From Botryllus schlosseri (Eukaryota), in contig CM119371.1 in NCBI GenBank assembly GCA_051294905.1, positions 8,372,001 through 8,436,000 of the forward strand: 64,000 bases of DNA. The letters run 5' to 3'. Shown piece after piece: positions 27,021 through 48,500 of this stretch. Positions within the stretch are counted from its first letter, which is position 1, and each line of letters opens with the position of its first letter. The position numbers were made by a program, and so were the translations under genes. Under the pieces are notes generated by a model, which ran no database searches, was not told where the DNA came from, and saw nothing but the letters and a program-made list of their open reading frames with translations.

Positions 27021-27696
27021 TATGAATGTGTTGTCCGTTGCAATATTCAAATTCTGTACCACAAGGAACCTATCGTTCCTTTTTTATTAGTTGTTTTTTG
27101 GGAAATAAACACCGTAGGTACTCATGGAGACAGATGAAATATACGCATCAGCCAATAATTATACAAGCTAAAACAGAAAAATACTGCATTTATCGCCGCA
27201 ACTTCGCTATATCCCATTCTCTGTGGATAGAAATAATAATTTTTTGGTAATATTAGCGTAACGCAGAATTAACGATGGGACAATGCCTTAGTGGTCGTAA
27301 GGACCAAGCAGCCACTGGCATGGATTTTTTCACTTTAATGCGGTTCGCATGAGTGCGAGTGGCAACTATTTCTTCCCGCTGTTTTCATGAGCCTGCAAAA
27401 CATATATAGGCATACACCTGCGGATCATGCAGCGCAGTAATCATGCCCGGCGTCACAGGGTTACTGATAAACAGATTTGACATCGGACGGAACCTTGGTG
27501 GTGCGATGTCTTAATATCCCACCGAAAGCTCAAGCATAGATATCGGCAAACATTTTCCTAGCATCCTAGTTTTGAATAGCTGCAACGTGACCATCATAAT
27601 CCAGGAGTTGTCGTTTCGTTTTCAGAAATTCGCCAAATTATACTACTATCTACTCACGTATATTACAGCAAGTGTTCAGAGACGAGCTGATAAGAT

Positions 27697-28273
27697 ATGG
27701 AGTCGTTACAAAACTGCATCGACGTGTGGCTTGGAGCGTCAAATGATATCGAGTTAGTTGACCGAAAGCAACAATCAAAAGAAAGATGTGAGGTGAATCA
27801 AGAAGCTAGATTTTCTTCTGAAACTAGTCCAATAGGGTCACCTAATCGCGATATGCATGAAGAGGATTACATCATGAATATCTGTAATAACCGGATAATA
27901 TTTTCCACTCCGCCGCCACCTTCGCTAAGCACGGATGACGAAGAGTCGAGCGACGTCAGTTCCGATCACTCCAACTGCTCAGTCGTTCGTCAAGATCAGT
28001 CAGAAGTGATTGATTCCGAAAATCAAGACACAACGATGGAAATCGATGCAGAACTCCACAACGGATTGCCGACAGATTTCTGCCAGGGACAGTCGGCGAG
28101 CGGATGGCAGACCGGCCCATGGATTGTTGGAGGACCTGAATATCAGATTGTTCACGGCAACATTCCTGTCATCAATGTTGGGGAATTGTCTGATTTATGG
28201 TGGATTGGTCATAACTTTCCTTTGGGCACGCTGACGGAACCGTCCGGTAATGTCGAAAGTCCAACATTACAAG
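27697..28273 (+). CDS. Divergent forkhead gene, coding exon 1 (acidic, Ser-rich N-terminus)
   Basis: ATG-initiated open frame of 192 codons. Phase-1 donor CAAG|GTATTT, which is CAAG|GTAAAT in the paralogous copy at 45473. The link to the forkhead exons is inferred from phase compatibility. Confidence 0.65.
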
Positions 28274-28778
28274 GTATTTTCATGGTTGGGAATATTTATT
28301 ATTGATAACTATGATTTCTTTCATCTGTTTCTTGATGAGCATAAGAAACCGGTGATAACATCAACTGAAAATTATGGTAAATATATTAAATATTTTCATC
28401 ATGTGAACGAAGTTGTTATGTGGATAATATAGAGACATGCGGCGGTTACTACGTCAATAGGATCGAATACGATTGCGATTACTTCTGAATAGCGCGATTA
28501 CGACTACAGGAAGATTCCGAAGTAGTCCATTACGGATACGACGTAATAATGACCGGTAGATCCGGTATTTTACCTTTGTATGACGCAGGACTCCTTTTAT
28601 GCAATGTTGATCCGTTCATGTCTTAATCCTCGTAATCATTGTTATGCACGTAATCTTCATATTCGATTACGATTGAGAATCACGATTACCCCACCTCTGA
28701 TAGCATAAGAAGATAGATAATGACTTGATCGGCAGTATTTTTCTAATGCGCCTATGTAATACTACTTTCCTTTTACAG

Positions 28779-28985
28779 GAGGCAATGGAATACTTAGCTG
28801 CGACGAACAGCTACATGCTAATGCCGTGGTTCTTGAAAGTGAAGCCAACGGCTACTTCCATCAACATCAACTGGCCAGTTTGTCCCATCCATTGACTGAA
28901 ATGCCGCATTCGACGAATGTCCCTGCTATACCAAATATGTTCGCCGTTTCATTCAATTCCAACGAGAATAATATATGTGGCCAGG
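28779..28985 (+). CDS. Divergent forkhead gene, coding exon 2
   Basis: Branch-like TTCTAAT, acceptor CTTTCCTTTTACAG|, 207 nt open in phase 1 to 1 (GNGILSCDEQLHANAVVLESEANG...ICGQ), strong donor CAGG|GTAAG. Confidence 0.75.
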
Positions 28986-29159
28986 GTAAGAAGGTTTTGT
29001 ACTTTTCCTAACATATGATACGGAAATCAAGTCATAAATTTCTACTCAATGATAACTGGAAGTATCGATTTCCGTGACATGTCAAAACGATAACTTCAAA
29101 TTATGGAAGTTGCGAAAACCTGAAAGGTTCTGTTTGGTGTGAAAAAGCGAACTTTTTTG

Positions 29160-31461
29160 AAAGGTTTTGTGTGAACGCGAACGTGAACACGAACCAGACG
29201 CGTCACACTGCTTATTCCAACACTATATTTTCGTAAAGTAGGCAAATACATCAATGTAGTACACGAAACACAGGCCTATAGCGACGACTCGGGCAGCATT
29301 AAGTAGGCATTCTAATAACTTATAAGTATATGCTGACGTTCTCACTAGCACCAAATGTATCAACAATCTATAGATTTAGTAATTAAATTAAATCAAGATC
29401 TTCGGTCGCTTTACCAATAATTTCGATGAGGAATTTCCAGGGAATAGAAAGCTTACGGTTTAACGGTTTAGGAGTCAGAATATTGCTACATTGCTTTTGA
29501 TCAGAGTGAAATCTCTATACTTGCCCCAGATATCACCTCAAAATTAAGTTATGCAGTAGCCAACAACCCAACCGCACGGATTTAGTTCTTATGATACAAT
29601 AAACATATCAAATCATTACACTGGTCAACAAAATAACTTTTTTTTTAGGCAGAACATCTGAGAGTCGTTACTGGGGTTTTTGAGATTGCTGATTACGAAT
29701 ATCACATTAGTTTTGTCAGATTGGCTCTTTGTCAGAAGATATTTATACCCCTAAAAAAGCCCAAAATTACCGAATTAACCCTTGAATATTTTTCTTGGTA
29801 GGAAGAAAAACGTATTGTTTTCTAATTTTATAATGCGCATAAATAGCTAATTGACTATGAAGAACCCTCATGTCATTCCCAGTCATTCCTTCAATATTAA
29901 CATGACATGATGTGAAATATTTGTTATCAAAAAACAGTTTGTCAGGCCTAAAAATTGTACTATTGCAGAACGGAAAAACATATTCTCCTGTATCCATTGG
30001 TCATTCTACCAAGATTAAAGAGGAGTATAAAACTATAAAATTTGTCCTTGAAAGGCCTGACTACAATACTCATATGCAACTCACTTCTTTTGACTGGTAA
30101 ATGGATAATTTTCCGCTGAGTCAGCAAATTGTGTATACCTAGTAACCCTATCAAACGAGAAGCTAAAATCTGGTATCTGGTATATTCGAATACCGATGGA
30201 AGATCCCAATTTCACAATAGGAAGGAGTTCACTGCATGTAATTTTCCCTAAGATGTAGTAAATAAAACTTTTTATATGATCACAAAGCACCCAACTACAA
30301 ACAGTAAGTCCGAAAATTCGTATCTGCATATAGAAAACTTGAGCACAAACATGAGCATAAAAGTTCACTTCCTGTTCAGTCATCTCTACATATTTACTGA
30401 TCATCTTGTTTATTAGCAAGGGGAGAGGTTCTACCAAGACATCAGAACACAAAAGAAAGATATCAGCGCAGATGAGATGAACAATTGAACATATTATGCC
30501 AGACAATTGCCGGAACTTTTCCAGGAACTGCACTAAATAGCTTACAGGCGACAATCAAACAAAAAACAATTGTGATTTAGAATATATCAATAATATTATG
30601 TTCCAACTTATTATTTCAAATTTACAATAACTGGTTGACGTGAAATCGATTGAATTAATGCCACGTTATTTGACTATCTAAGTAAATAGTTATATACATG
30701 ACTGGAGTTCATTTATGTACATGATATCCGTGAAAGTCAACTATGATAAATCAATTACCCCTAAATATAGTGCTGTTGCTGTATTCTGATTTAAAAGAGT
30801 CTTCCGTGTGTAAAAATAACAAGCAGATAGAATTTCTAAACTTTATAATACCACTGAGCCGATTTTATATCTAGTCATTGTCGCGAAAATGGGAGATTTT
30901 GGTCAAAATAGCCCCATGGTTTATATCCACAAGAAGAGCCAATTTGAAAAAAACAAGGTCATATTCGGAATCAGTGACCTTCAGAACCCCCAAAACCACT
31001 TCTACTTTGTCTGCCTAAAAATATGCGTTGACCTGTGTTATAGATCCCGTATAGGCCTACGCCTGCTCGACTTTTTATATTAGACCACGATGCATAATAT
31101 TAATTCCGTTGATGTCGACCGTAGATAAAACGGTCATTTCGTGCCAAACTCACAGGAGAGAGTCACTAATATCGTCAAAAACGGTAAGCTGAATATTTCG
31201 AGCAAACTTTTCTAACAAAACCTTTGACATGGGCAAGCTGCATGCTCGTTTAGTGCTTAATTCATGTTCGTGCTGTCGGCGCCATGCAGAGAGTAGTGCG
31301 AAGTTGAAATGCGCAGAATATCAGTTTAAAATGTTATAATGAGTTGGAAAATTGTCATAAATGGAAAAGGTTTACAGTGCAGAGCCTATCAAGGTTCTTT
31401 TGCGAGCGCGGACGTTCACACACATAACGCAAACGTGAACCTCACGTTCACACCATCCCCA
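29160..31461. mobile_element. Second copy of the 19140-20279 MITE family (intronic), split by a Chapaev3 insertion
   Basis: GTGAACGCGAACGTGAAC motifs at both ends and right end GTTCACACCATCCCCA. Internal homology to 19780-20200 on both sides of the insertion. Confidence 0.75.
29619..31037 (+). mobile_element. Chapaev3-type DNA transposon, internally deleted and decayed
   Basis: Termini CACTGGTCAAC / GTTGACCTGTG with 3-bp TSD TTA on both sides. Transposase relics LKIVLLQNGKTYSPVSIGHSTKIKEEY, LSNEKLKSGI, NMSIKVHFLFSHL and QGERFYQDI. Confidence 0.9.
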
Positions 31462-31966
31462 CATCAAATAGAACTTATGTCGATTTGGTCGACACCTTTA
31501 GCAGATAGTCATAGATAGTTTCTTTTCAAATTATAAGGTGCTTCATTGCGATAGAAGCGCAGTCACTAGGGAGCGTACAAAATCGGAAAATATATGAATT
31601 TACCTTGATGAAGTTGCTATTTTGCCCATTTGCTTTCACCATTCCAAAAATATAATCGATCAAAACATATCCACACTATCCACTAAAAAAATTACCAAGT
31701 AAAAAAGTAAATATGTTTGAAGAAAGCTGTGGAGCTGGTGTAGAGGTTATATAAAAACATGTCCACTTCAGTAGGTAGCAAGACTACGTAAAGCCTACTC
31801 TGATAGTGCAAAAAAGTGAAAGTATGTACTTCGTCACTGACCACTGGCTATTTATGAGTACATGCCAGACATATATATTAAATACAATCTATGCTACATT
31901 GTAAAGCCGTGTCACGATATCTTCTCTTATTAGTAATTTCGATAACAACAAATTATTTGGGTTCAG

Positions 31967-32296
31967 ACGCGGAGGAGGAAGTGCAGCAGGAGCTTAAACT
32001 CCCAAAAGCCGCAGACATCAATCCAGGCCATATCGCAGGAGTCGACGATGTATACTACGAAGTATACGAAGTATTGAATGCGTCAGAAAAAAGGAGGCTT
32101 GATCTCCCTGGGCATCCATCTGAAGCTAAACTTCGAGAATTGCAGATCAGGATCAACACTAAAGAAATGAGCTTCACTGACTGTCTGATAAAAGCGCGGT
32201 CACCGAAAAGGAGAAAGAGGCAAAAGCTGGGCTCTCATACTTCCTGAAAATCTGGAATCAACGTGTAATCAGAGGTGGTCACTGGTCAGGATCGAA
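31967..32296 (+). CDS. Divergent forkhead gene, coding exon 3 (putative degenerate first forkhead domain; 1-nt frameshift near 32206-32209)
   Basis: Phase-1 acceptor GTTCAG|. Reads ...VYEVLNASEKRRLDLPG...KEMSFTDCLIKARSPK and, after skipping one A, GERGKSWALILPENLESTCNQRWSLVRIE up to a phase-0 donor GAA|GTACAT. Confidence 0.6.
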
Positions 32297-32367
32297 GTAC
32301 ATCCATTGTTTTACAATAGTAGATAAATTCCAACTGCTTTCGCTGACTGGCCTGTTTGTCGTTTCAG

Positions 32368-32423
32368 GCTATTTCGATATCAACCAACTTCAAACCATTT
32401 TGCTTTCTAGATTTAGTCAAGAA
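32368..32423 (+). CDS. Divergent forkhead gene, coding exon 4 (56 nt)
   Basis: Preceded by a 71-nt intron with branch GCTGAC and TTTGTCGTTTCAG|. Reads AISISTNFKPFCFLDLVK. The phase-2 donor AA|GTAAAT matches the next exon. Confidence 0.6.
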
Positions 32424-33022
32424 GTAAATAGTTGTCAGTTAAATGTGCGTCACTTTTGGCGGTGCCCACCATTAAATTATTCACCAATCCTGTCCCTGTA
32501 TCACGGTTACAATAAATACAGGGAATTTTGACTATTTCATGTATTTCCGTCGCCAAAAGTCTTATTGAATTTGTAACAAAGATGCATTTTCGTAAGATTT
32601 TTTTTCGTGGGAATGAGCGGAATTAAAATATTCAACGTCCCGTCTGAACCTAATCATTAAATCCATTTACTTGAGCACTTCGACTTTTACGACCACTCCA
32701 AAGAATCCTTATATGTCTCACAATTACTTAGTTTACTTTTGATTGAGCAAAACGCTACGCCAATACTTGTATTATATGCATTCTACTCATGTAGTCAACA
32801 CGACTAGTTTTGAAAGCTATACGGGATAGTGGTTAAAGTAGCTACTGCGGATACCACACCGCTGCATGTAGATTGTTTAGTCTCTGAAATCTCAAATCCG
32901 ACACATATCGAAATCAATTAGTAAATCTTAAATAAGATTGATTATTTACCTCACTTTCCTTTCACTCGTACATGAATAGATTTAAACTGAAATGGGAATT
33001 CGAAATATGTTGCTTTTTGCAG

Positions 33023-33278
33023 CGATAATGGGGGCAAGCGCAGATACGGTACAAGGATCGCATACTCAATTGAAGACGGCATACTCAACATACTCCTCGG
33101 AGAAACAGCCGCCATGGCGGCATTCAATCCTTTTTTGAAGCCGCCTGTAACGTACGACATCCTCATATACCTCGCTTTCAAGATGGAGAACTCTGACAGC
33201 ATGGAAAATAGCGATATTTACCGCAATATCATGGAAATATTTCCGTATTACGGCGACTCGAAAAAAAAGACATTCAAG
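33023..33278 (+). CDS. Divergent forkhead gene, coding exon 5 (forkhead helices 1-2)
   Basis: Acceptor TTGCTTTTTGCAG|. KPPVTYDILIYLAFKMENSDSMENSDIYRNIMEIFPYYGDSKKKTFK aligns to the forkhead consensus KPPYSYIALI.MAI...LSEIY.FIM..FPYY....GWK. Donor AAG|GTAAAT. Confidence 0.88.
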
Positions 33279-33520
33279 GTAAATAAAATCAACCCATCTG
33301 TTTTAATGCTACTCATGCTAGGACATATAGTATCCTTTCATTGATTTTTATTGTTTGTGACTGTTCCATCTACGGCTACGCAATCGTTGTATAATAATAG
33401 ACTCCACACGAAAATAGTGATCACGATATACCTGGCATTTACTATGTGGAATATTGCGATCCCAGATCATCTGAATTGGTTTGTTCCCCGTTTAACAAGT
33501 TTGATTACTGTCTGTTTCAG

Positions 33521-33701
33521 AGCAGTGTACGTAATCGTTTGAGCGACGCAAGCAAAAAAGCTATGCCAAAAATCCTCTACCGCAAGATACGCTCAAGCTT
33601 ATGGGCTGTCTCAGACGAGGCGAAACTGAAGAAAGACTTGCTCGCTATTCTCCGTGACGACAAGAAACTACTTCAGATGCGAAATGCGATACGTCAAACA
33701 A
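33521..33701 (+). CDS. Divergent forkhead gene, coding exon 6 (recognition helix and wing)
   Basis: Acceptor CTGTTTCAG|, phase 0. SSVRNRLS corresponds to NSVRHNLS, followed by ...SSLWAVSDEAKLKKDL...MRNAIRQT. Donor A|GTATGA, phase 1. Confidence 0.85.
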
Positions 33702-34025
33702 GTATGACACATTTTCACGTTACCCAGTATAGACATGTGATATCCTTGTATGTGTGCTCAAGAGAATCATTGGTTTGTAGTAGGCCTTATACATATATTT
33801 TAGTGAAGTTTGTATACCGTAGTAAAGATATGCCTGAATGGATTTGTGATTATTGATGGATGCATCAAATGACTTTTGAATCTTTTGAAATCTTCGTAGG
33901 TCCCACGTCACCCAGACCATATCATGTCTTGTGATACGACGCTATGTTGAATGTATTCTGTTAATTATTGCTTGTGAGTCACCTGGATAAATTTGACATC
34001 GTTTTATGTACCATTCAAATTTCAG

Positions 34026-34099
34026 ATGCTGCCGTTCGTCGCATTTTCGAAGGCGACGACCAACTGCGATGTTTTGTCCCGACACTATTCGTGGACTGA
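34026..34099 (+). CDS. Divergent forkhead gene, terminal coding exon 7
   Basis: Acceptor AATTTCAG|, phase 1. Reads (N)AAVRRIFEGDDQLRCFVPTLFVD*. A diverged copy at 36828 conserves the acceptor and much of the peptide. Confidence 0.7.
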
Positions 34100-35442: not shown

Positions 35443-36827
35443 TTAGTATAACACGGATCGTAGGAGCTCTATTGTAGCAACACCTTTATTCGCAAGCAAT
35501 GGAAATGGCCAAGATACGATTATTTGCAGATTAAATACATTATAAACCGCTAAATATATGGTTCTAGCGGTAATACAAGTTGACGTATTTCTATATGCAC
35601 CCTTTGATTTAGTCGTGATGTGGCGTTAGACCAGCCCTGCGTATACGACTATGCGTGATGAGGAATACAAAAGATCTCGAGAGATATTTTCCATCGGAAG
35701 TTATATAGCAGTGCCTCCACGGATTCCCTGCGAACTGTTTTAATCTCCAGGTAACCTGCATATAATGGTTTCTCATTGGCGTTTTCACTTCTGTGAATAA
35801 CTACTTTTTGTCCGTTTTTTTTTTCTTCATAAAACTATGCAGCCAGAGTGCACTTTTTTGTCTCCTCGGAATTTAGTGTCAATGTAACCGATTTGTTTCT
35901 AATGGCGACTAGACTCACTAAAGTGAAACTGCAACCCTGCCGTCGTGTGGTATTAATATGGCACATTTTCGATATTTCCTGTTTTGATGCTTGTTTAATG
36001 GAATTATTTCGTACTAAATATCTCAACATTTGTTGGAAATGTGCTGGATAATACAAGCATTTCCAATCTACTCAGAATTGCTTCACGGGCTGGATGAAAT
36101 CGTCTTTCCGGCCGTATGTTCAAGTATAATAGATGACACCATAAGAAAGTACTAACACGATATAGCAGATCTGCTATTTCTGACTCAAATTGCTTCTCAT
36201 TAAAAATTTGAATCTACATAATGAAAGTTGCACATCTTCTTCGCGCCTCCTTACCTTTATTGGCGATATTGCATAGTAGCATCCGGCAACTCCTGAATGA
36301 AGGAAGGAAAATGGCGAAGAGCGAAAATACGCTACCGCAAGGTACACCGATCGAGTCCATGGTCTATTTCAAACGCGGCGGAATGAAAGATAGCCCTACT
36401 CATTTTCCTCAACGATCAGAAAATTGTACTTCAAATGCGAAAAGCGATCTGTAAAATTAGTATTCCTATTTGACTCATTCATTGTGGCCATTTCGTTTTG
36501 ATTTCTATAGAGAGTGGATGGATGGTTTGTAAGTAGTAACGATAACTGTACGAATCGGTTATTAATTTAATTGTATAATTGTTTAGTTGTAAATCAGGTC
36601 TCAATTTACATTTTTAATAGTTCATGGATGCATGGAATGGCAGTATTCTGCATTCTACGACGTTTTTAACGCTGCGGAGGTCTAACATCGATAAAACTAT
36701 CATATACTTGACAATACGGTGATATGTGTATTGTGCTTTGTCGGTACCTACATTCATACAACTCCTCTGTGGCTTTATGATATATTTGCGTGGAATTACG
36801 CGATGCTCAATGTTTCTCAAATTTCAG

Positions 36828-36900: not shown

Positions 36901-39176
36901 GACCAATGACAAGATTACATTTCGCAACCACAGGAACAAAATGCATGTTATTTGAACCAACAACCAACAGCATTAGTAGGCAAAAGGCAGCGTAGCAAAG
37001 CAAAGACGATTGCATGGCATAGGCTCCATTGGATGTCAGTTTGCCTAAGTTATTCATCTTTGTGATGGCGGTGATAATTTTTAAATAAACTTTTCCCTCA
37101 ATGTGGCGACTTTTGACTACATTTTTTGGGTATCAGATATCTTGGTGCGTTGTTGTTACATCTGTTTCGTGTATATTCATGATGTAACCAAGCAGTGGTA
37201 ACAGTGGGCAAAATCACCGTGGGTGCGTTTTGACAGAAATTTTAGTTTACATGAACATTATTATTTTTGACGATAATTACAATTAATGAAGAGTTTCATG
37301 TACCTCTGAGGTTGAAATTACTTCCGGTTCAGAGAATTCAGTTTGTGATTCTTAATCTTCGATTTAACCGAGTTAAAATTTCTCGGGATTAACTATAAAC
37401 GAGTTATCCGTCCTCCATTATATGGTACCTGAGCACGTTCCACGTATTAAAAACGGAATGCTTTCTGGTACATCCGTGAAATCTCTATCGATAACAACAT
37501 GCAGTTCAGCAGTTGGCAATGCAGTTTGGTATAGTTTACAATTCATATTACCATGTCTGTGAGCGAAAGCTGCGACTAATGTACGGCTAAGCCTATTTTG
37601 TGCTCCAGATGACAGTACGTGTTGATTCACTGCGGTCCCATGCTCCATCGTAACTAATTAATGCATAGCGCTTGTGTTAGGACATTTTATGGGTAAAGAT
37701 AATCGGCAAATGAGCAGCATTCAGGTTTTTCCAAAACACTGGCAATAGGAATATGCCGTTATCGATCTGTTAGTGAATTGCGCTACCACCGATCAGTATT
37801 ATTCCGCCTCACTTCTATTTTCGAGCTATATGTCATCAATATATTTGAAAATTGCCGAACGTGACTATTTTTCAAAAACGTCATATTTGTGTTTCAAAAC
37901 GAAAACACATCGAGTAACTTGCGCAAGATGGAAGACACAGTGAACATTCAAGATGAGTCGAGCCACATTGTAGAAGCAGTGCGAAATCTCATCTAAAGAA
38001 GTACAATTCGATATCTATGGAATGTCAAGACTTGGTTATAATGTGGCGAAATGAAACCCATCCATCAAATGTTTTCGCCGTTCACAATGTGACAATAACC
38101 TAGATACAAGAATTAACGCAGGGTATAAACAAGTCGGTGGGCCAAAGACGCTAGTAAATGTCCGGTCATGACTCTGCAAGGGAGAGAAATAATATCTTAA
38201 CATACCCAACGGTACACTCTTCAATATCCTGAAAGACACGTCTCGTGATCTGCGTACAAGTGAAGCCAATAGCTCTGTATATTTCCGCGTCCCAATATTT
38301 CGTTACTGAAATCTATCGCAGCAGCATCACAGAAAAATAATCTATTTTAGTTGATCAAATATTATTTACGAGTAACCGGATTTCTCGTCCGCTAAAACTT
38401 CCGAATTCTCGTCCGCTAATATAAACTTTGTAACTTGTAATATGTGTCCTCTTTCCCGATCTTGAAATATGATAACCATAGAAATCATGTGCAGGACCAT
38501 CAATTTACCATGCCAGTATTAAAGAACAATTATATCACACATTAATTTTGGGAAAAAACAGTTTCCGTTGTCACGATACCAAAACCTTACGTTTCCTTCC
38601 TCTTGACGTCTTATTAAAGTTTCCTAATTGCTGACAACAGGAAAGATGTGAACAATTGACCGTCAAGGAACAAACATAATTACGAATGCCTACATTCAGC
38701 AGTCCGCCAGCAGAAATCGATCAATCATCACAGAAACTTTACTGAAGGCGCTGATGTATATCGACGACGTCACCAGTATCATCGTCTTCAAAGTTGTCAT
38801 CTATTGCCGAACCTGACCTAAGCTGGCCCAGAGCACTGAATATTTTCGAAATAATACGGAAGCAGCATCCATTTTTATTGAATGTCACTAGGATTAGTCC
38901 TCGTTCTTAGTCACCAAATAGTCATTACGCATATTAAATCATGTTTAAATCAGGTCCTCATGCTAAATAATATTGAAAATTTATTCATAGCAAAATTAAA
39001 AGTATTGCCGAAATAGAATTATGACAAAAATCGACGGCACTGACAACTGATTTTGAGCCTTAAGCAAGATTCTTTCTGGATTTTGACAGCAGGATAATAT
39101 TGCATATCAGCACGGCATATGAAGTGAATCCAACATGTTTATATAACACGTTATGATTGGTACTGTATGTCGACAC

Positions 39177-40807
39177 CAGAGTTGGATCAATTGTAATTTG
39201 TAATTGAGCTGAATGTAATTACATACATTTTTTCATGTAATTGTAATTGTAATTGAAGCATTTCGATTTTGTGTACTTGTAATTGTAATTGTAATTTGAT
39301 GAAAATTTTGCTTAATTACAATTTCAATTACATTGTTATGGAAACATGAGAATCACAACATAAAATGATCAATCAATCATTTATTCGTCACACCAGTGAA
39401 AATCCGGTACGGGCCAGGATGATGACGAGGGGCCTTAAGGCCTTGGTACACAGTCGCCACCTGTAATAATAAGCCTATTTACATCGGTGTTCTATGCGTG
39501 CCGCGTTATAAGTAGATAATTCAGCCATGCTAAACTGTTTCCCATACTTCAGTAGCAACAGAAAACTTTGCGAATTACATTATAGGCTAAACCAGTGGTT
39601 CTCAAACTGGGGGGGGGGGGGGGGCGTGCCCCCCTTGGACGGGTTGAAAGCATCTGAAGGGGGCGCGAAGCTCCGGTGAACTGAATTTTTTTCCCGCGCT
39701 TGGCGTGCTTCACCTTTATTTTATAGCTATTGTGATGTGTATCGTTCGAATTTCATATTGGAGAATTCTCTCATCAACAGTCATAACCTTCCATACCATC
39801 AAACTTTATCTGTAAGAATTCCTAACATTCTGGTTTCATTGTGTGATATGACGATAAGTGGGGCACGAAATATTGCACTGTCATAAAAGGGGCGTGTCTA
39901 AAAAAATTAGAGAATGGGTGGGCTAAGCTAAATCCTAATATTTCAAAAATGAATGAACGACAAATAAACTCTTCTGAAACCTGTTCTGAACCATTTCCTA
40001 CACCACGGCCAGAGTTTTATATTTAAATCTCGGACCAGTACCGAGGCTTGCTGCAACAATTGCAAAAAGAAATTCAAGTTTCCAACAAAGGCTTCATCAA
40101 ACTTGATCACGCATTTGTTGAGATGTTATCCCAATCTTACCTCCAATCTTGGCCAAATTTACTGGGGCCAGAAATTTTCGCACCCTAATATGTTCATCAA
40201 ATGCAATCTAACAGTTTACGGGCAAGTGAAAATGTAAATGCGAACCAAAATGTTGTAATTAGTAGTTATCACGAGGTTCTTTCCTTTTGCATGTATTTTA
40301 ATTTTATACATCTTATCGGTATCATCCTTATCGCTGACGCCTTACCAATTACATTTCATTATCCTCACTTAGCTCTGAGTAGCCTAATCGTTTGATTACA
40401 TTTTATTGACTATCCTGTAGCCTATTCGCTGTTGGTCGCTCAAACTTTTGGCCGGTACCAGTCGCTTGAAATATTTTTCTGTGTTTGTAGTGTTCAGTAC
40501 TCATGATTAGGAATAGTTCGAATACGTTCGAGTTTTTTAATTAAACGGTATTCTACGTATCATGAATGAAACACGAATAGCTTGAGATTGTTGCTAATTA
40601 CGTCGCTAAGGTTATCAAAGAACACCTCTCTACCGATTCAATTACATGTTCAGCAAAAATTGTAATTGTATATATTACATTTTAACAGTAATTGTAATTG
40701 TAATTATAATTTGATATTTTTAGCATTGAGTAATTGTAATTGTAATGTAATTGAGGGAGTAATTGCAATTGTAATTGAACTGAATTATTGTAATTGATCC
40801 AACTCTG
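39177..40807. mobile_element. hAT-like element with (TGTAAT)n subterminal arrays
   Basis: Perfect TIR CAGAGTTGGATCAATT / AATTGATCCAACTCTG. Perfect 8-bp TSD GTCGACAC. Confidence 0.92.
39593..39920. mobile_element. hAT MITE nested in 39177-40807
   Basis: Left end CAGTGGTTCTCAAAC, degenerate right end, TSD GGCTAAAC / GGCTAAGC. Confidence 0.7.
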
Positions 40808-41829
40808 GTCGACACTACCGCGTCGATAGAAATAATAAAAAACTTAATCTTTCGTTTTAGAGTCTCCTCTTCGACTTTTGTCTTTCGGGTGTTTCTTTGA
40901 TGGTCTGGGATTTGTACCCTTCCATCATGGGCGAAGAGAGTGGGTGTCTTAAAACTCAACAACCAGGGAATCACTGTCTTTTACGCTGAGCGGCAATATC
41001 CTCAAATCATTATATACACCTGAAGACTACGGTTGGGATTTGAGGATCGGCATTTCCCGGGATTGGCAAGGATGGAATATTATACACTTGATGCTACACA
41101 GGCACCATTTATTTATTGTAATATTGACGCAAAACTCAGTTTTGATACTAACATCTTCTACAGCCAGGCTGTATAGAGCACTGGTCCCCAACCTTTTTGT
41201 CTTCATTCCCCACTTCAGATTTATCCCGAGCCTTCATCCCCCACCAGGACCATAACAGCACTTTGTCAGCCCCGTGGGCGAAGCCCCCAGAACCCCCTCA
41301 GCCCCGCTGAGCCTGTACACTTTTTTTCCGCTACTTATCAGATACATTGGGTATACTGATTAGTGCGCCGCCTTATTGGGACCAAATGCGCGAAGCGCGA
41401 AAAATTTATATAGTTCGTGTTGTAATTGGTAAATATGATTGGGAATTGCATATATTTTGTTACCAATTTTTTATCCTCTATTTGCATACGCAATGAGATT
41501 TACCGGTACAGCTGAGTGAGGTGTCTTGGAAAAGGTAGGAACCCTAAATAAGAATTAAACATTTTCAGGCGCACCCGTTGGTATATTGGCTTCATTGCAT
41601 TATGCCATTTCGTGACCTCCTATACCTGCTATGTCAAAAGAGATGGAAATCGCCCAAACTAAAAGGCACACACGATTTCAAATTGGTATTGCTTTACTGG
41701 TAAATAATTTTTCCCTGCGGGATGGCATTTGCCCTGTTCGGTTCACATCGCCAGGACAGGAACATTTAGCGCCGGCCATTTAGCCGCCTATGGACAATTG
41801 AGCATATATGTATATTGTATATATATAGT

Positions 41830-43290
41830 CTCTTTTGCCGTTGACGCAGCGGAAAGTTATGTTACTTCTTTTCCCGGTACTATACCGGACCCTGCCTTAT
41901 CCGTGGCCAACTTTTCATTCTCGTCGGAAACCACTTCCATGGTAACCGTATCATCTCGGTCTTGGTCCCGGATTTCGAATAATTCAAGACGCTCTGTAAA
42001 TTCTTTCAAAAATTCTAAACATAAAGTAAAGTCCATCAAATTCTATCCCTCCTCTCATAGTAATAGCTTCGCTTCTTCTACTACCTCCTCTGGGTCGCAC
42101 GACTCGCCAACAGTCGTGACGTCACCGAATTCATCTGCGCCCCAAACCCCGCCCCCAATCCTTAGCCGACTCCCGGTCCGTAGGCCAGTCACTGGGTACT
42201 ACTACTTACCTGCCGCCCGTGCCTGGCTTCGGAGTGTCGGGGATAGTAGAGAGTCCCTAGGACGTCATACCATAACCCCCAAAATCGTGGTTTCCCCCAA
42301 GGGGTTTTACTCCCTCCCCACCCCAAACGTTAGTGAAGAGTCGTTTGGCCCCTATGTCTCTTCACAAAGCCCTATTCCTTCGCTTTCGGAATTGTTCAAA
42401 GTACCTCTGCCAGGCAGCCGGGGCTCTACTCAAGAGCTCCATGCCCGGTTGGAACGGGTAAGTCCCTTCCCCACCACACGCGATGATCTGAAACAGATGT
42501 CGTCGGCGGTAACTAGTCCGAACAACGTAGACTCGCCTCCCGTCGGTCAGAGAGCGTGTCTCCCTCGCGCCCACCTGTGGACGAGACTAGCTCTGTGACG
42601 GCTGAATCAGCGGGCGGCCATTCCGAAATTACCGGAGCTGTCGATCGCTGTGAAAGCCCGACGAGATTGCCTCCTGCGGTGAGTGCACGTGACGAATTGA
42701 ATGTCGACGTACCTTCTCCCGAACCGAGCCCACCTCGTGCACAAGTCGATCTGCGCGAGTTGCGCTCGGAGCTTGCGAACTTGGTGTCCGGATGTCCTCA
42801 CAACACCGAGGCTTTCGGGCACCTTGGAACGTGAGTTGGAGCTCTGCACTGACCGTGCCTCTAATTGCAGCCGCCCTCCCGGCCGTAAACGCCCCTCCCC
42901 CCCTAGGAACAGATTCTCGCGCGCGAAGCACAACGGCGTGCTAAAGTCAACCAATTGAATGGTCAGCGCGAGTATTGGTCTGGGGCGGCACAACACCTAC
43001 AGTCCGCTTTCTGGCGCAATCAGAAGGAAACGGTCAGACAGATAGATCACCGAGGATGATTCTGGCAGTAAACGGTGCGAAATTCCTGCTGACGTCATCG
43101 ACCGGAAATTTCGTGCTGACGCTGCCGCCGCGGTTTCTGATAATGACGCTGCTCTTCCTTGGTGGATGACTCAGCACAGTTGCCAGGTCGCCCTGCTGTT
43201 GACGACGAGGCGATCACTTCTGTAGAGGTAGCGAGAGTGCTGGCGACCTTAAACACAAGTAGTTCGCCAGGCTCCGATGGTCTCACCGTC
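41830..43290 (+). mobile_element. GC-rich relic, probably L1/Tx1-type LINE (ORF1-like Ser/Pro-rich part plus the start of the RT region)
   Basis: AITSVEVARVLATLNTSSSPGSDGLT (about 43210-43287) matches the non-LTR RT N-terminal motif IT..EV...L......SPG.DGLT. The upstream low-complexity ORF (41729-42598) is unassigned. Confidence 0.5.
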
Positions 43291-43535
43291 GCAGGGTTAC
43301 TGATGAACAGATTTGAAATCGGAATAAATTTTTGTGGTGCGATGTCTTAGTATCCCATCGAATGCTCTTGCATAGCTATCGGCACGCATGATTTTCCTAG
43401 CATGCTAGTTTTGAATAGTGGCAACGTGACCAGCATAATCCCGAAGTTGTCCTTTTGTTTACAGAAATTCGCCAAATCCTACTAATATCTACTCACGTAT
43501 ATTACAGCAAGTATTCAGAGACCAACTGAGAAGAT

Positions 43536-45473
43536 ATGGAGTCATCACAGAACTGCATCGACGTGTGGCTTGGAGCGTCAAACAATATCGCATTAGTTGA
43601 CCGAAAGCAACAATCGAAAGAAAGATATGAGGCAAATCAAGAAGCTATATTTTCTTCTGAAACTAGTCCAACGGAGTCACCTAATCGCGATATGCATGAT
43701 AAAGCTTACACCATGAATATCTATAACAGTGGTTCCCAACGTGGGCGATATCGCCCCCCGGGGGGCGATTTGTCGGTCCAGGGGGGCGAAAATAGCCAAG
43801 GGGGCGATAGGGGGGCGAAAACGGACGAAGGGGGCGATAGGGGGCGATGGCGCGTTGAAATGGCTATATTGGCGTCCATGACCGTAACTGCCACACCCAA
43901 ACCCCAATTGGGATGGGGGCCCGAGATCGAAGGAGGCCCACAATTCTTTCGTGAATTAACAATAATTAATGTGGAAATTTAGGCAACTTTTTCAAAAAAA
44001 TTCCGCGCTGCGCGCCTTTTCTTGGTCTCATATTTCTTACTTATTGGATACCCTTCCTCCAAGAAATAATATGCATGAGTTATATAAATGGGCATCTCGG
44101 CATCAGTCACACCATGTCGCACCAAGAGATATGTATAGTCTCAGGCCATGTAACATGCGACTCCGAGAAGTGGGCCAGAACGCGAAAACCTTAGGGAAAA
44201 GGCCTGCCTTTATGCTGACCGACTTCGATATATATACGATAGACATATATATTTAATTGTATATATGCGCCTAAATGGCTGGCGCCAAATGTTCCTGTCC
44301 TGGCAATCAGAACCCCACAAAATTATGCCATCTCGCAGAGAAAAATTAATTGCCTGTGCAGACATACCAATTTCAACTCGTGTGAATCTTTTAGTTTAGT
44401 ACGTATGGGCGATTTGAATATCTTTTGGCATAGCAGACAGGCCAGAAAATGTCATTACGTAACGAAGTCATTATACCCACGGGTTCGCCCGAATATGTTA
44501 AATTATTATTTACGGGCCCTACATTTTCCAAGACACCTAACTCAGCTTTACCGGTAAATCTGAATACATGAGCAGAGAGAGGATAAGAAATTGATAGAAA
44601 TATATATGCAATTCCCGATCATATTGACCGATTCAATCATACCGATGGAAATTTTTCGCGCTTCGCACGAATTAAGCCGACTAACTAATGAGTCCAACAA
44701 TTTGTGCTGAGAAGTAGCGGTGAAGAGGTATCGGGGGAGTTGGGTATGAGGGGTGCAGAAGTTTGCTTTATCGCCCTATGGAGGGGGGGGTCAAGACCAA
44801 CGTATTGGGGGCTGACGAAGTGCTGTTATGGTCCTTTTGGAATCAAGTCGGAGAAATCACCTTTTTTGTTACTCAGCTCACCAAAATTTAGCTGGGAAAG
44901 TGAAATTTCGCGGTCGAGCCGAAAAGTTGACCTTTTTTCTTAGTCAACTCGCCGGTGATTTCAGTCTGTATGCCCATTCTTCGGTTCCCCATATTTGGGG
45001 GGCGATGATCGGCGTGGAGTTTGAAAAGGGGGCGATGAGCCAAAAAAGGTTGGGAACCACTGATCTATAATAACCGGCGAATATTTTCCACTCCGCCGTT
45101 ACCTTCGCTAAGCACGGACAACGAAGAGTTAAGCGACTTCAGTTCCGATCACTCGACTTCAGTTCCGATCACTCCAACTGCTCAGTCGTTCGTCAAAATC
45201 AGTCAGAAGTAATTGATTCTGAAAACCAAGACACAGCGATGGAATGATGAGGATTTCACAACGGATTGCCGACAGATTTTAGCCAGGGACAGTCGGCGAG
45301 CGGATGGCAGAAAGGCCCAGGGATCATAGGAGGACCGGAATATCATATTGTACACAGCGTCATTCCTGTCTTCAATATTGGAAGTTCGTCTGATTTGGGG
45401 TGGATTGTTCATATCTTTCCTTTGACCACGCAGATGGAACCTACCGGGAATGTCGAAAGTCAAACGGTTCAAG
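43536..45473 (+). pseudogene. Disrupted paralogous copy of forkhead-gene exon 1
   Basis: 43291-45510 is co-linear with 27455-28310 (MESSQNCIDVWLGASNNIALVDRKQQSKER...). It is broken by a hAT insertion, a 20-bp tandem duplication and small deletions. The donor site is retained. Confidence 0.9.
43727..45062. mobile_element. hAT (Charlie-type) element inserted in the exon-1 paralog
   Basis: Perfect TIR CAGTGGTTCCCAAC / GTTGGGAACCACTG and perfect TSD ATCTATAA. The empty site ATCTGTAA is visible at about 27880. GGGGGCGAT subterminal repeats. Confidence 0.95.
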
Positions 45474-45559
45474 GTAAATTCATGGATGGCAATATTTATT
45501 ATTGAAAACTATTAGCTCGGGCTGGACCAAGAGGTTATATGTCGTGAATGGGATGTCAT

Positions 45560-48500
45560 GATTATGACATGACTCAATGAGAAAGGACCGTTGAAAATCA
45601 TATCCTGCACAATTCAGTACAAGATGGTCAACGGTTTCGGCGATATTGCAATGAAGCCATAGCGGAGTATCTGAACATCATATTTCGAACGAATGAGCGT
45701 TAAGCCTACAGTGTCCGGAGCGCAGACGGAACATGATGACGTAAAATTGCCGATATGCATGCATTGACGTGAATTTAGTTGAATTGCAACTACTGAAACT
45801 CTTATAATGCATCTCTTTATCTTCACATGCGTACAGTTCCTGCCAGAGAGTTCGCAAATATTGGCGGACAATTGACTTAGTTTCTCCGATGGTCACCTCA
45901 GGGAGTTGACGATTGGGGCCAGACAAAGATGCGGATGTTGCTTTGCGGTCGGCGATCTCGTTGCCATGGATACCTTGGTGACTGGGAATCCATTCAAATG
46001 CTACCTCTATACCCAGGGTTGCCATACCGTCCTCATTTTTAAGATTTGTCCTTATTTTAAAGGGCCACGTCTTAACATCTCAACTGTCCATATTTCTAGT
46101 AAATGTCCTTTAAATGTCCATTGTTACTGGAGTTCTTGCTCCATACGTTCAAAAATGATTTTGTCTATACTTGATGTACAGCCATTTTCGATCTTGGTTG
46201 ACGCCTCTAATCAGAACGAGGCGAATAAGTTTGGTTTATAACCCTATGGCCTATGGGGTGCCCCAGACCAACGTGTTTTTGGGGGAGGGGCTGGCGAAGT
46301 GCTGTTCGGCCCTGAGTGAAGGTAAACCTAGACCTGAGCTCTGAGCTGTCGTGAGATCAATGAAGCACTTTCTAATAATGAGGAGTTGCAAGAGCAGGCT
46401 GTTTCTTGCGAAAAGTATGGAATGTTATATGCCACGGATCGTACAAATACAAAGTATGTACAAAATCGCTTTTGATACTAATATAATTTTTCGACTTTCC
46501 TTATATGGGTCTTTGTCGATGGCAACCGTGTCCATACCTCTTTCAGTTACCCGCTCAAACAAGGGGAAAAATTTGCTGAATATATCTGTCGGCGCCGTGA
46601 GAGGGTTGGATATCGTATTGAGCACACTAAGCGAATCTGAAAGCATCACATATTTCTCTTCGTTGCATCCAGTATCTGACACCTAGGAAAATGCATGATG
46701 AATCGCTAAAAGTGCAACATGAAATACGGAATGGTAAAAGTTATACTTACCGATACCGAACGAGAGGGGATATAGAAAGCGTGAGCGGTTGCTATTGGGG
46801 TCTTGGACCCATCTTTATATATCTCGATAGCTCTGTTCGTGGCATTCAAACTCTGTTCGTGGCATTCAAACATATAGTCGTGGAAACATGCTTTCATAAC
46901 ATCTTGAGAAACATTCTTTGGGTGTAAACGTAGCAGTTGCGTATTGACGATTTGTGGGCGGGCCATCCACGGAAGTTGATAATGGAAAAGGGGTTGTCTC
47001 CACTGAAATTTTCCGAAACAACGGGACGTTGGAGTAAATGTTATACGTGACAACGTTAGGTCTAATTAGCCCATATATCTCGTCCCATGATGAATCTTGC
47101 AATAGCCCAAGCGCCGAATGTTAATCTGCATTTAGTTTGAGTAGGTAACAGCGATAATTCCATACACAGATATTTGTGTCTAATGTGAAGACGGGGTTCG
47201 TTGCATGTTGCTTGTAACGCACAAACAGGGGAGCTGCGCATTGCTCCACAACATTAACGCAATGCTTTGTTCTGCACTACTTCGATCTTTTTCGAATGGC
47301 ATTTTGGAGAGAAGTAGTATGCTGCCATACCGTAGTCAATGAGAGACCTGATCAGAGACCTGTGTAACTGTAATACTGACGATTTGTTACATCCCCAGTT
47401 CGTACCACGAAGTGCACGCAGCATACTGATCGACCGACTACACTTCTAAACAGCACAATCAATATGGAATTTGTACGAAAGATTGGTACTCAAACTTCTC
47501 AACCAAATTGATGTCGACTCCGTCAACGCACAATAATACCTCGGGGATAATCCTCTTTCGGGTATAATACCTCGGGGATAATCCTCTTTCGGGTAAAGAG
47601 CATGTCCACTGACTTGATTTTGAGAGAGAGCAACGCCACTTATTACATCACTCCTGGAACGATTTTAGACACATTTGAATGGATGCTGTAATGCGGGTAA
47701 TGGATAGACCACTCTCCCGCATTGCGCAATCATCGGCGTAGAGTAGACGCCTATACTTCCGTGTAAAATGGGGATGATATCGTTCACCATCACAGCAATT
47801 AGTGAAGGACTATATCGTTCACCATCACAGCAATTAGTGAAGGACTATAAGTACACTGCCCTGAGGTATGCCATTTCCTAGGGTCCCCACATCAGAGAAA
47901 GTATTTTCAATAAGAACTCGATAGGTTCTCTCACTGAGGAAACATTTAGGCCACCCCAACATATGACCTTTGATACCCAATTTCGATAGTTTAGACAACA
48001 ATCCGTGGCGCCACACCATATCATAGGCCCGTTCAATATCTAGAAACACGGCCAACGTTGAACGTTGATTGTTGATGGCCTTGTATACATCGTCACGGAG
48101 CGTAAGGCTATGATCCAACGTACTCCGACCTTCTGGGAACCCAGACTGTGACACATTCAAAAGTTTATTCGACTCAAGAAACCAACGCAGTCTCCTTGCA
48201 ACTATCACCTCTAGAATCTTGCAAATATGACTAGTCTGTGATATAGGTCGGTATGATTCTACCGCGGTGCTATTTTTGCCTGACTTAATAATTGGAACCA
48301 GTATAGAATGTTTCCAGCACTTTGGTAGCTGCCCCTTTGCAGTAGTTGACGAGTCGCTTGTTGGGAAAAGGTTTTTTAGCATCTGAAATTAACTTATCGA
48401 GTCATGGCCAGGAGTGGAGAGACCTAACGCGACTGAATAGCAGCTTTCAATTCGGGGACAGTGAAAGGCTTGTTTATGGACATTTCAGGGACAGTGAAAG

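Follow-up and report, generated by a model that had tools for sequence, protein, structure and literature searches.

A 64,000-nucleotide stretch of the genome of the tunicate Botryllus schlosseri (assembly GCA_051294905.1, contig CM119371.1, positions 8,372,001 to 8,436,000 of the forward strand; hereafter the window) carries on its plus strand a divergent forkhead (Fox) gene, which to judge from its exons and splice sites is apparently an intact member of a large and unannotated family. In helix 3, the recognition helix of its forkhead domain, the gene has Ser at the position of the canonical base-contacting Asn, Asn at that of the canonical His, and Arg at the next position. An earlier, sequence-only reading of the window had treated this as the private rewiring of a single gene; the gene is instead one of a family of at least 29 loci. 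The gene structure, the size of the family, the conservation of the altered residues, the purifying selection acting among the paralogs and the kinship to the ascidian Orphan Fox-1 proteins are documented here, and we consider it reasonably probable that together they reflect the amplification of a Fox subfamily whose DNA-reading surface has been changed under selection.

Structure of the gene and of its family

The forkhead domain is encoded jointly by two exons, B and C, preceded by a probable coding exon A and followed by a terminal exon D (coordinates in Table 1). Exons B and C are free of stops, the frame of the window copy is open across 167 codons, and the KPP, IY, FPYY and LWA residues of the forkhead core are all kept, as the sequence-only reading had stated. 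That reading had set the start of the feature at 33130; the exon begins further upstream, at 33023, and encodes a conserved N-terminal extension. Its placing of an intron exactly between the K that ends exon B and the first Ser of helix 3 (K/S; here and below a slash marks an exon boundary) was right: exon B ends TTC AAG/GTAAAT at 33278, and exon C, directly preceded by a pyrimidine-rich tract and CAG (TTTCAG/), opens at 33521 with AGC AGT GTA CGT AAT CGT TTG AGC, giving SSVRNRLS after FK as had been claimed. A phase-1 donor, A/GTATGA at 33702, follows exon C and is common to all modelled copies of the family. Exon D is in frame in the window copy, in 11 modelled copies from contig 15 (C15), in a pair of copies on C14 and C4, and in a decayed neighbour. 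Exon A, the splicing of which is predicted from sequence, has the acceptor GGTTCAG/ at 31966/31967 and a basic KRRKR stretch at its end; its donor at 32220 is AG/GCAAAA in the window copy and AG/GTACAG at the equivalent site of the C15 copies, and there is an alternative in-phase GT at 32199.

Against the Pfam Forkhead profile (PF00250, cut-off 27 bits) exon B alone scored 32.3 bits (E 1.1e-7, profile positions 2-47 of 88); further scores obtained at the place of exon B were 30.8 bits and, in the scan of this genome, 30.6 bits. The spliced window protein aligned end to end, at 184.8 bits, to a family profile from which the window copy was left out, and this score and the Pfam match indicate that the observation is more than chance. 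A profile of exon B from an alignment of 13 copies (alignment A1, with 17 invariant columns) matched the solved structures of FOXA1, FOXN1 and FOXN3 at 38.1, 34.8 and 33.1 bits respectively, and so showed no preference for FOXN1 over FOXA1. The corresponding alignment of exon C (A2, likewise of 13 copies) has the invariant residues S1, R4, R6, L7, Y20, L36 and I57. Exon C is read as helix 3 and wing from its position after exon B, from the alignment of a joined family profile, which runs through helix 3 and the hairpin of the Orphan Fox-1 proteins and of the canonical forkhead P0117, and from the prediction of a helix and hairpin in its secondary structure.

The two exon-encoded halves of the domain were folded separately by AlphaFold2, using alignments A1 and A2. 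For exon B the model has strands at residues 8-14 and 17-23 and helices at 25-32, 41-54 (H1), 60-70 (H2) and 72-76 (a short FPYY helix), with a mean predicted local distance difference test (pLDDT) of 74.8; for exon C it has helix 3 at 3-13, strands at 20-24 and 27-30 that form a tight hairpin, and helices at 33-45 and 47-59 (mean pLDDT 70.2). The half models present the order of elements expected of a forkhead, H1-(S1)-H2-H3-S2-wing-S3, and taken together they place these elements as in a winged helix whose wing 1 is minimal and whose 'wing 2' region is helical, at pLDDT 70-75. In the window copy wing 1 is a two-residue turn, and the linker between helix 3 and the following strand is longer and divergent. 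The earlier statement that the canonical LNKCF strand had been replaced is thus sound in that the strand region has diverged, and is better put as a longer divergent linker with a very short wing 1. The length of this linker differs between subgroups of the family, and within exon C conservation is highest in helix 3.

The position of the intron is shared with other Fox genes. Within the same genome, a FoxP-like gene (C14), a FoxO-like gene (C12) and a forkhead gene at C9:18.33 Mb are split exactly before the first helix-3 residue, in agreement with the earlier statement that this position recurs in several Fox subfamilies; in a FoxM-like gene and in one at C13:6.01 Mb the intron lies two to three codons earlier. 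PMC9539403 defines clade II Fox genes by a conserved intron site in the forkhead domain, and the K/S boundary is this old clade-II position. The C9 gene (G000:C9:18333472-18333609 and 18338809-18338931; L053 and L054), with the same intron position, has a helix 3 that reads N-S-V-R-D-N-L, with Asp for the base-contacting His.

A search of the 495-Mb assembly with exon B returned 43 matches, the first 29 of which (41-100% identity) were of the same gene type, with canonical Fox genes only thereafter. Twenty-one of these 29 loci yield models of exons B and C(-D) with GT-AG introns at the same positions and in the same phases, and 20 of the models are open, the remaining one (L037) carrying a TGA; the 8 other loci show plain decay: stops, loss of donors or truncation of exon C. 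Extra copies were found by searches with exon C in the C15 cluster and on C13. The family comprises one large cluster of tandem copies (contig 15), five dispersed copies that keep the helix-3 His (C1, C3 and C13), a C13 pair, a C14/C4 pair and a local C1 array. Exon structure, the N-terminal beta-hairpin extension and the C-terminal acidic tail exon are shared across the family, and splice sites and exon phases are conserved across subfamilies. In all groups exon B encodes the extension (basic residues, Tyr, R-I-x-Y/F, L-x-I-x-L-G..A), then H1, H2 and FPYY. At each column invariant in the other 12 aligned copies the window copy has the family residue; its identity to any other copy is at most 52%, and the synonymous distance (dS) is saturated or incalculable.

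The C14/C4 pair (L036:260-3465 and L037) lies on two chromosomes, at C14:18.55 Mb and C4:13.85 Mb, and forms a 3.2-kb duplicate with sharp boundaries and 97% identity. The first ~526 bases of the duplicate are a high-copy repeat, with 7018 first-look candidates and ~38 scored copies at 86-89% identity. Transposon carriage was considered as a general explanation of the family and rejected: the 3.2-kb duplicate has no terminal inverted repeat, though one of its ends is this repeat.

Helix 3, selection and alternative explanations

The direct hydrogen bonds of a forkhead domain to bases usually come from just two residues, the Asn and His of the N(S/A)IRH motif (PMC8501956), and the helix-3 asparagine is termed 'ultra-conserved' in a preprint (10.1101/2025.05.27.656303). 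The window copy, reading S-S-V-R-N, lacks the canonical N-(S/A)-I-R-H motif with its base-contacting Asn and His. In a codon census of the 21 modelled copies the helix 3 consensus was S-[ST]-[IV]-R-[NHQ]-R-L. Position 1, the canonical Asn, is Ser in 20 copies and Asn in one (L013), the codons being AGT in 17, AGC in 3 and AAT in 1. The conserved Arg of position 4 is present in all 21, written in four different codons; position 5, the canonical His, is Asn in 14, His in 5 and Gln in 2; and positions 6 and 7 are Arg and Leu throughout. Both base-contact residues are altered in 16 of the 21 copies. The claimed divergence at both base-reading residues therefore stands for the Asn position and only in part for the His position, which is not uniformly lost; likewise, of the pattern S..RNR that the sequence-only reading had proposed to follow through the paralogs, the Ser (20 of 21) and both Arg (21 of 21 each) are family characters and the intervening Asn (14 of 21) is not uniform.

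The exceptional copy L013 (G000:C1:11950443-11953613) belongs to the His-keeping subgroup. Its exon C opens with AAT (Asn), as against AGT or AGC in the 20 others, so that its helix 3 begins N-S-I-R-H like those of canonical forkheads, with the family Arg retained.

Ratios of nonsynonymous to synonymous change (dN/dS) were calculated pairwise within subgroups over exons B to D by the method of Nei and Gojobori (NG86), gene conversion among tandem copies being unscreened. They ranged over 0.18-0.70 for the 36 C15 pairs and 0.19-0.52 for the 10 pairs of the His-keeping group, and were 0.28 for the single C13 pair and 0.22 for the single C14/C4 pair; most lay between 0.2 and 0.4. L010 and L012, for example, whose 3.1-kb loci are 87.6% identical overall, differ by dN 0.030 and dS 0.159. 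The paralogs are under purifying selection and the altered residues are conserved. From the near-fixation of Ser, the invariant Arg and these pairwise ratios, the rewired helix is taken to be a selected trait of the family. The sequence-only reading had held that the divergence preserved the fold, and that pseudogene decay would be betrayed by a dN/dS near 1, by substitutions not conserved in homologues and by lack of expression. Among the paralogs the first two of these signs are absent, and the synonymous variation in the codons for the conserved residues and the conserved splice sites likewise speak for divergence that preserves the fold, at the level tested, and not for decay; only the third has some footing, in that expression was not detected in four RNA runs.

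We propose that the locus is an intact-looking member of a lineage-specific tunicate forkhead subfamily, amplified both in tandem and in dispersed copies, whose origin would lie in a clade-II Fox gene of the ascidian Orphan Fox-1 type. In the common ancestor of these copies helix 3 would have passed from N-(S/A)-I-R-H to S-S-[IV]-R-[NHQ]-R, and selection would have kept it so thereafter. Most likely the proteins would still be nuclear, DNA-binding winged-helix factors; replacement of the adenine-reading Asn by the shorter Ser would give them a target site other than RYAAAYA, the conserved acidic and hydrophobic tail may be an activation or partner-binding peptide, and the window copy itself would be active. 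A different target sequence appears likelier than loss of DNA binding, since the proteins retain the fold, the Arg of helix 3 and the basic stretches at the N-terminus, and have fixed a new Arg; the family probably reads different DNA.

Several observations weigh against this proposal, and those that concern the window copy itself would fit an account in which the family is real and selected while this copy is young and silent or non-functional, an unexpressed relic of a decaying local array whose frame has not yet been hit. We think this unlikely, though it deserves to be taken seriously. In four RNA runs labelled as the same species, depth was zero throughout 31943-34078 and splice joints were absent, 6-13% of each run having been read at 97% likeness. 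That threshold is possibly too strict for a polymorphic species, and the tissues and stages of the runs are unspecified; the result neither establishes nor excludes expression of the window copy. The exon A donor is GC where the paralogs have the GT conserved in the C15 copies, so that the 5' part of the gene may splice abnormally, and the only polyadenylation-type hexamer after the stop lies ~700 nt downstream. Three of the four local copies are dead, which makes of the local cluster an array in birth-and-death turnover: besides the fragment listed in Table 1, the copy just past the window end has four stops, and in the copy 48 kb downstream exon B is frameshifted, a stop is present and the helix-3 codons are deleted (exon C matched at window-equivalent 81573-81731, exon D at 82061-82129). 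Saturation of dS makes a branch-specific omega for the window lineage unobtainable. Against a silent copy, all four exons are open, the three splice junctions other than the exon A donor are canonical, and every family-invariant residue is kept. Nor does the window copy have a close intact relative, and at such identities and with dS saturated its frame has remained open while the copy evolved independently for a long time. GC-AG introns are known to be functional at low frequency, and the in-phase GT within exon A offers another donor.

A different objection is that the family as a whole may no longer be sequence-specific, the winged-helix fold being kept as a protein-interaction or chromatin-binding module, whether linker-histone-like or a decoy, with helix 3 released from base reading. 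The 16 copies in which both of the residues that bond bases directly (PMC8501956) are changed would agree with this, as would the two-residue wing 1 of the window copy and the variable length of the linker between subgroups. Under relaxed constraint one would not expect a Ser and two Arg to be fixed in subfamilies between which dS is saturated, or helix 3 to be left as the most conserved part of exon C, and retention of the helix-3 Arg with the addition of a second would favour contact with nucleic acid. We accordingly rate release from base reading as improbable, and less credible than a silent window copy.

That exon C might not be helix 3 at all, so that the gene would encode only half a forkhead domain in exon B, has several negative results in its favour. 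Exon C alone matched no Pfam family, and its profile gave only three chance-level matches among solved structures, none of them a forkhead. Alignment of A2 to the Styela protein described below by hhalign was weak (39 columns, probability 4.7%). Foldseek returned nothing at E <= 0.001 for either half model, and the best Z scores of a wide fold search (VIA), 4.2 and 3.2, were not significant, FoxP3 reaching Z 3.2 for exon B; half domains discriminate poorly. This reading is nevertheless very improbable: exon C follows exon B in phase at the ancestral clade-II intron position in 21 of 21 models, alignment of the joined profile extends through helix 3, the hairpin and the later helices of three Orphan Fox-1 proteins and through the forkhead P0117, and the predicted order of helix and hairpin is as expected.

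A last point to be set against the change of DNA-reading surface that we favour comes from the public proteins: a Ser/Arg helix in this family context was found in none of them (profile A1 against 1.84 billion representatives; exon-C alignment against proteins of 33-123 residues), and no public homologues of exon B were found among longer proteins.

Other features of the window

The coordinates of the exons, introns and related features are collected in Table 1.

Table 1. Features of the window forkhead gene and its surroundings (window coordinates)
Feature	Position	Strand	Basis and remarks
Exon A, probable upstream coding exon	31967..32219	+	Similar open reading frames directly precede the forkhead exon at 13 paralogous loci of C15
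Exon B, N-terminal extension (predicted beta-hairpin and helix), then H1, H2 and FPYY turn, ending TFK	33023..33278	+	Pfam Forkhead match; alignment A1; acceptor CTTTTTGCAG/
Intron inside the forkhead domain, 242 nt, GT-AG, phase 0	33279..33520	+	Same codon boundary in all 21 modelled paralogs
Exon C, helix 3, linker, beta-hairpin with minimal wing 1, two more helices	33521..33701	+	Alignment A2; joined-profile alignment to Orphan Fox-1
Recognition-helix motif SSVRNRLS	33521..33544	+	Codon census, 21 copies
Second intron, 324 nt, GT-AG, phase 1	33702..34025	+	Splice-site reading; same layout in the decayed copy 48 kb downstream
Terminal exon D, acidic/hydrophobic tail (..VR.IFE.D..L...VP.LF), TGA stop	34026..34099	+	In frame; family hidden Markov model match to window open reading frame 33965-34096, E 7e-6
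Decayed paralogous exon C fragment, in-frame stop	36324..36449	+	tblastn: 55% identity over 42 residues, one stop; resembles the four-stop copy beyond the window end

A proposed seven-exon double-forkhead gene running from 27697 to 34099 was not supported as regards a second forkhead domain upstream: the family hidden Markov model (HMM), applied to all open reading frames (ORFs) of the window, matched exons B, C and D only, the next match having E 0.61, and Pfam found nothing in the upstream ORFs. No Rfam RNA family was matched in the window. Among public predicted proteins, P0001, P0002, P0005, P0004, P0007 and P0009 have 2 to 6 forkhead domains per chain, and helix 3 is non-canonical in some of these domains. 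They include Schistocerca cancellata LOC126108830, with 5 matched stretches, and Teleopsis dalmanni LOC119681997, with 2, and may be true multi-domain proteins or fused gene models.

Upstream of exon A, the ORF at 27694-28305 (+) has 203 codons, is rich in Ser and Asp and matches no Pfam family. As a candidate N-terminus of the forkhead gene it shows no similarity to the Styela protein, and it does not lie beside other paralogs. A decayed duplicate of it is found 16 kb downstream at 43533-45505 (+), with 64-81% identity over three aligned pieces and in-frame stops, these being the sole two copies in the genome. The duplicate adjoins retroelement remnants at 45678-48388 (-), with matches to reverse transcriptase (RVT_1, 70.5 bits) and to RNase H (24.5 bits, just below the cut-off). 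A further open frame of 296 codons at 41708-42598 (+), without a Pfam family, lies within the window's only G+C-rich block (42001-44000, 52% G+C). The sole RNA depth within the 16 kb examined is at 38885-41000, where the reads give partial fits, back-joints at 40687-40756 and 39237, and adapter-like and poly-G loose ends; it looks like a repeat or library artefact rather than a gene.

Relatives of the family and comparison with known systems

Scored against 1.84 billion representative proteins, the A1 profile of exon B gave 145 matches at E <= 0.001, few of which cover the N-terminal extension: these are Styela clava LOC120342057 (995 aa), matched at its positions 714-792, and the short unnamed fragments P0008/P0147 and P0043. 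Among the representatives searched, the Orphan Fox-1 proteins of ascidians are the only named public proteins to match the extension. The joined family profile scored 85.1 bits against the Styela protein (XP_039266658; family positions 2-146), 67.5 bits against Orphan Fox-1 of Phallusia mammillata (CAB3246972.1) and 63.4 bits against Ciona savignyi H2Z827, and in these alignments the family Ser stands opposite the Asn of Orphan Fox-1, and the family Asn, His or Gln opposite its His. Like the window family, Orphan Fox-1 has an extension before helix 1 (a basic K/R-Y stretch and ILG.TA), a forkhead core, and a helical region after the hairpin. It differs in keeping both Asn and His (helix 3 reads WQNA[IV]RHQL) and in consisting of single proteins of 580-995 aa, whereas the window family has Ser and Arg and many copies, and its upstream ORFs are without similarity to the Styela N-terminus.

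In an unrooted maximum-likelihood tree the 21 genome copies and the 3 named Orphan Fox-1 proteins form two clades, each supported at 100/100, and the window family is not nested inside the clade of the named proteins; the Styela type of exon C has no match in this genome. The family may consist of diverged co-orthologues of Orphan Fox-1, or of an older paralogous line. Orphan Fox-1 is probably the protein named Foxtun1 in Ciona. Foxtun1 is listed as abundantly maternal (10.64898/2026.07.29.740271), and Foxtun4 has been studied in cardiopharyngeal cells (PMC12705688). In the literature searched on Foxtun, Orphan Fox and tunicate-specific Fox genes, no account of an amplified family with a Ser/Arg helix was found.

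Exchange of the helix-3 Asn for Ser is, taken alone, not unique to the window family, as comparison of the motifs indicates. A regular expression applied to 163 collected proteins found Ser at this position in 5 of 116 helix-3 motifs, among them Caenorhabditis brenneri CAL2039509 and CAL2039507 and the second domain of Teleopsis dalmanni LOC119681997. These forkheads belong to unrelated lineages; four of the five keep the His and the Asn that follows it, and they are without the Arg after the His position and without the extension and tail. The FoxP-like and FoxO-like genes of the present genome share the intron site of the window family, but their helix 3 is N-[AS]-[VI]-R-H, they are single- or low-copy, and they have neither hairpin extension nor tail exon.

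In forkhead factors the recognition helix is classically regarded as all but frozen. Here, more than 20 paralogs have exchanged the helix-3 Asn and its neighbours and then held the new set under purifying selection, providing in the Ser/Asn, Ser/His and Ser/Gln variants, and in the one copy with Asn back, a natural series for how forkhead specificity can change. Should the genes prove silent or non-binding, this would be an ordinary birth-and-death gene family. A tunicate genome can evidently hide some 30 unannotated genes of Fox type, as compared with the 23 Fox genes counted in the related ascidian Styela clava (PMC8122590), in which a FoxR subclass is also reported; according to the same source, Fox is one of the two families with fewest members among six tunicates.

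Among known systems, a parallel in mode of evolution is offered by the orphan foxQ2 and foxN2/3-like expansions of annelids (PMC9539403), which are likewise fast-evolving, lineage-restricted, multi-copy and unassignable to a class. They belong to another phylum and derive from other parent classes, and the available text of that paper makes no mention of a family-wide exchange of base-contacting residues. As a speculation to which we would give rather long odds, the family may be a set of fast-turnover, amplified Orphan Fox-1 co-orthologues with a new DNA-recognition code, Ser replacing the adenine-reading Asn alongside a new Arg, and acting narrowly, for example in oocytes or at the first zygotic transcription. 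Such a narrow early-stage role would fit the silence of the sampled RNA runs, and the family would then be for tunicates what the amplified and fast-evolving clusters of early-embryo transcription factors are for mammals.

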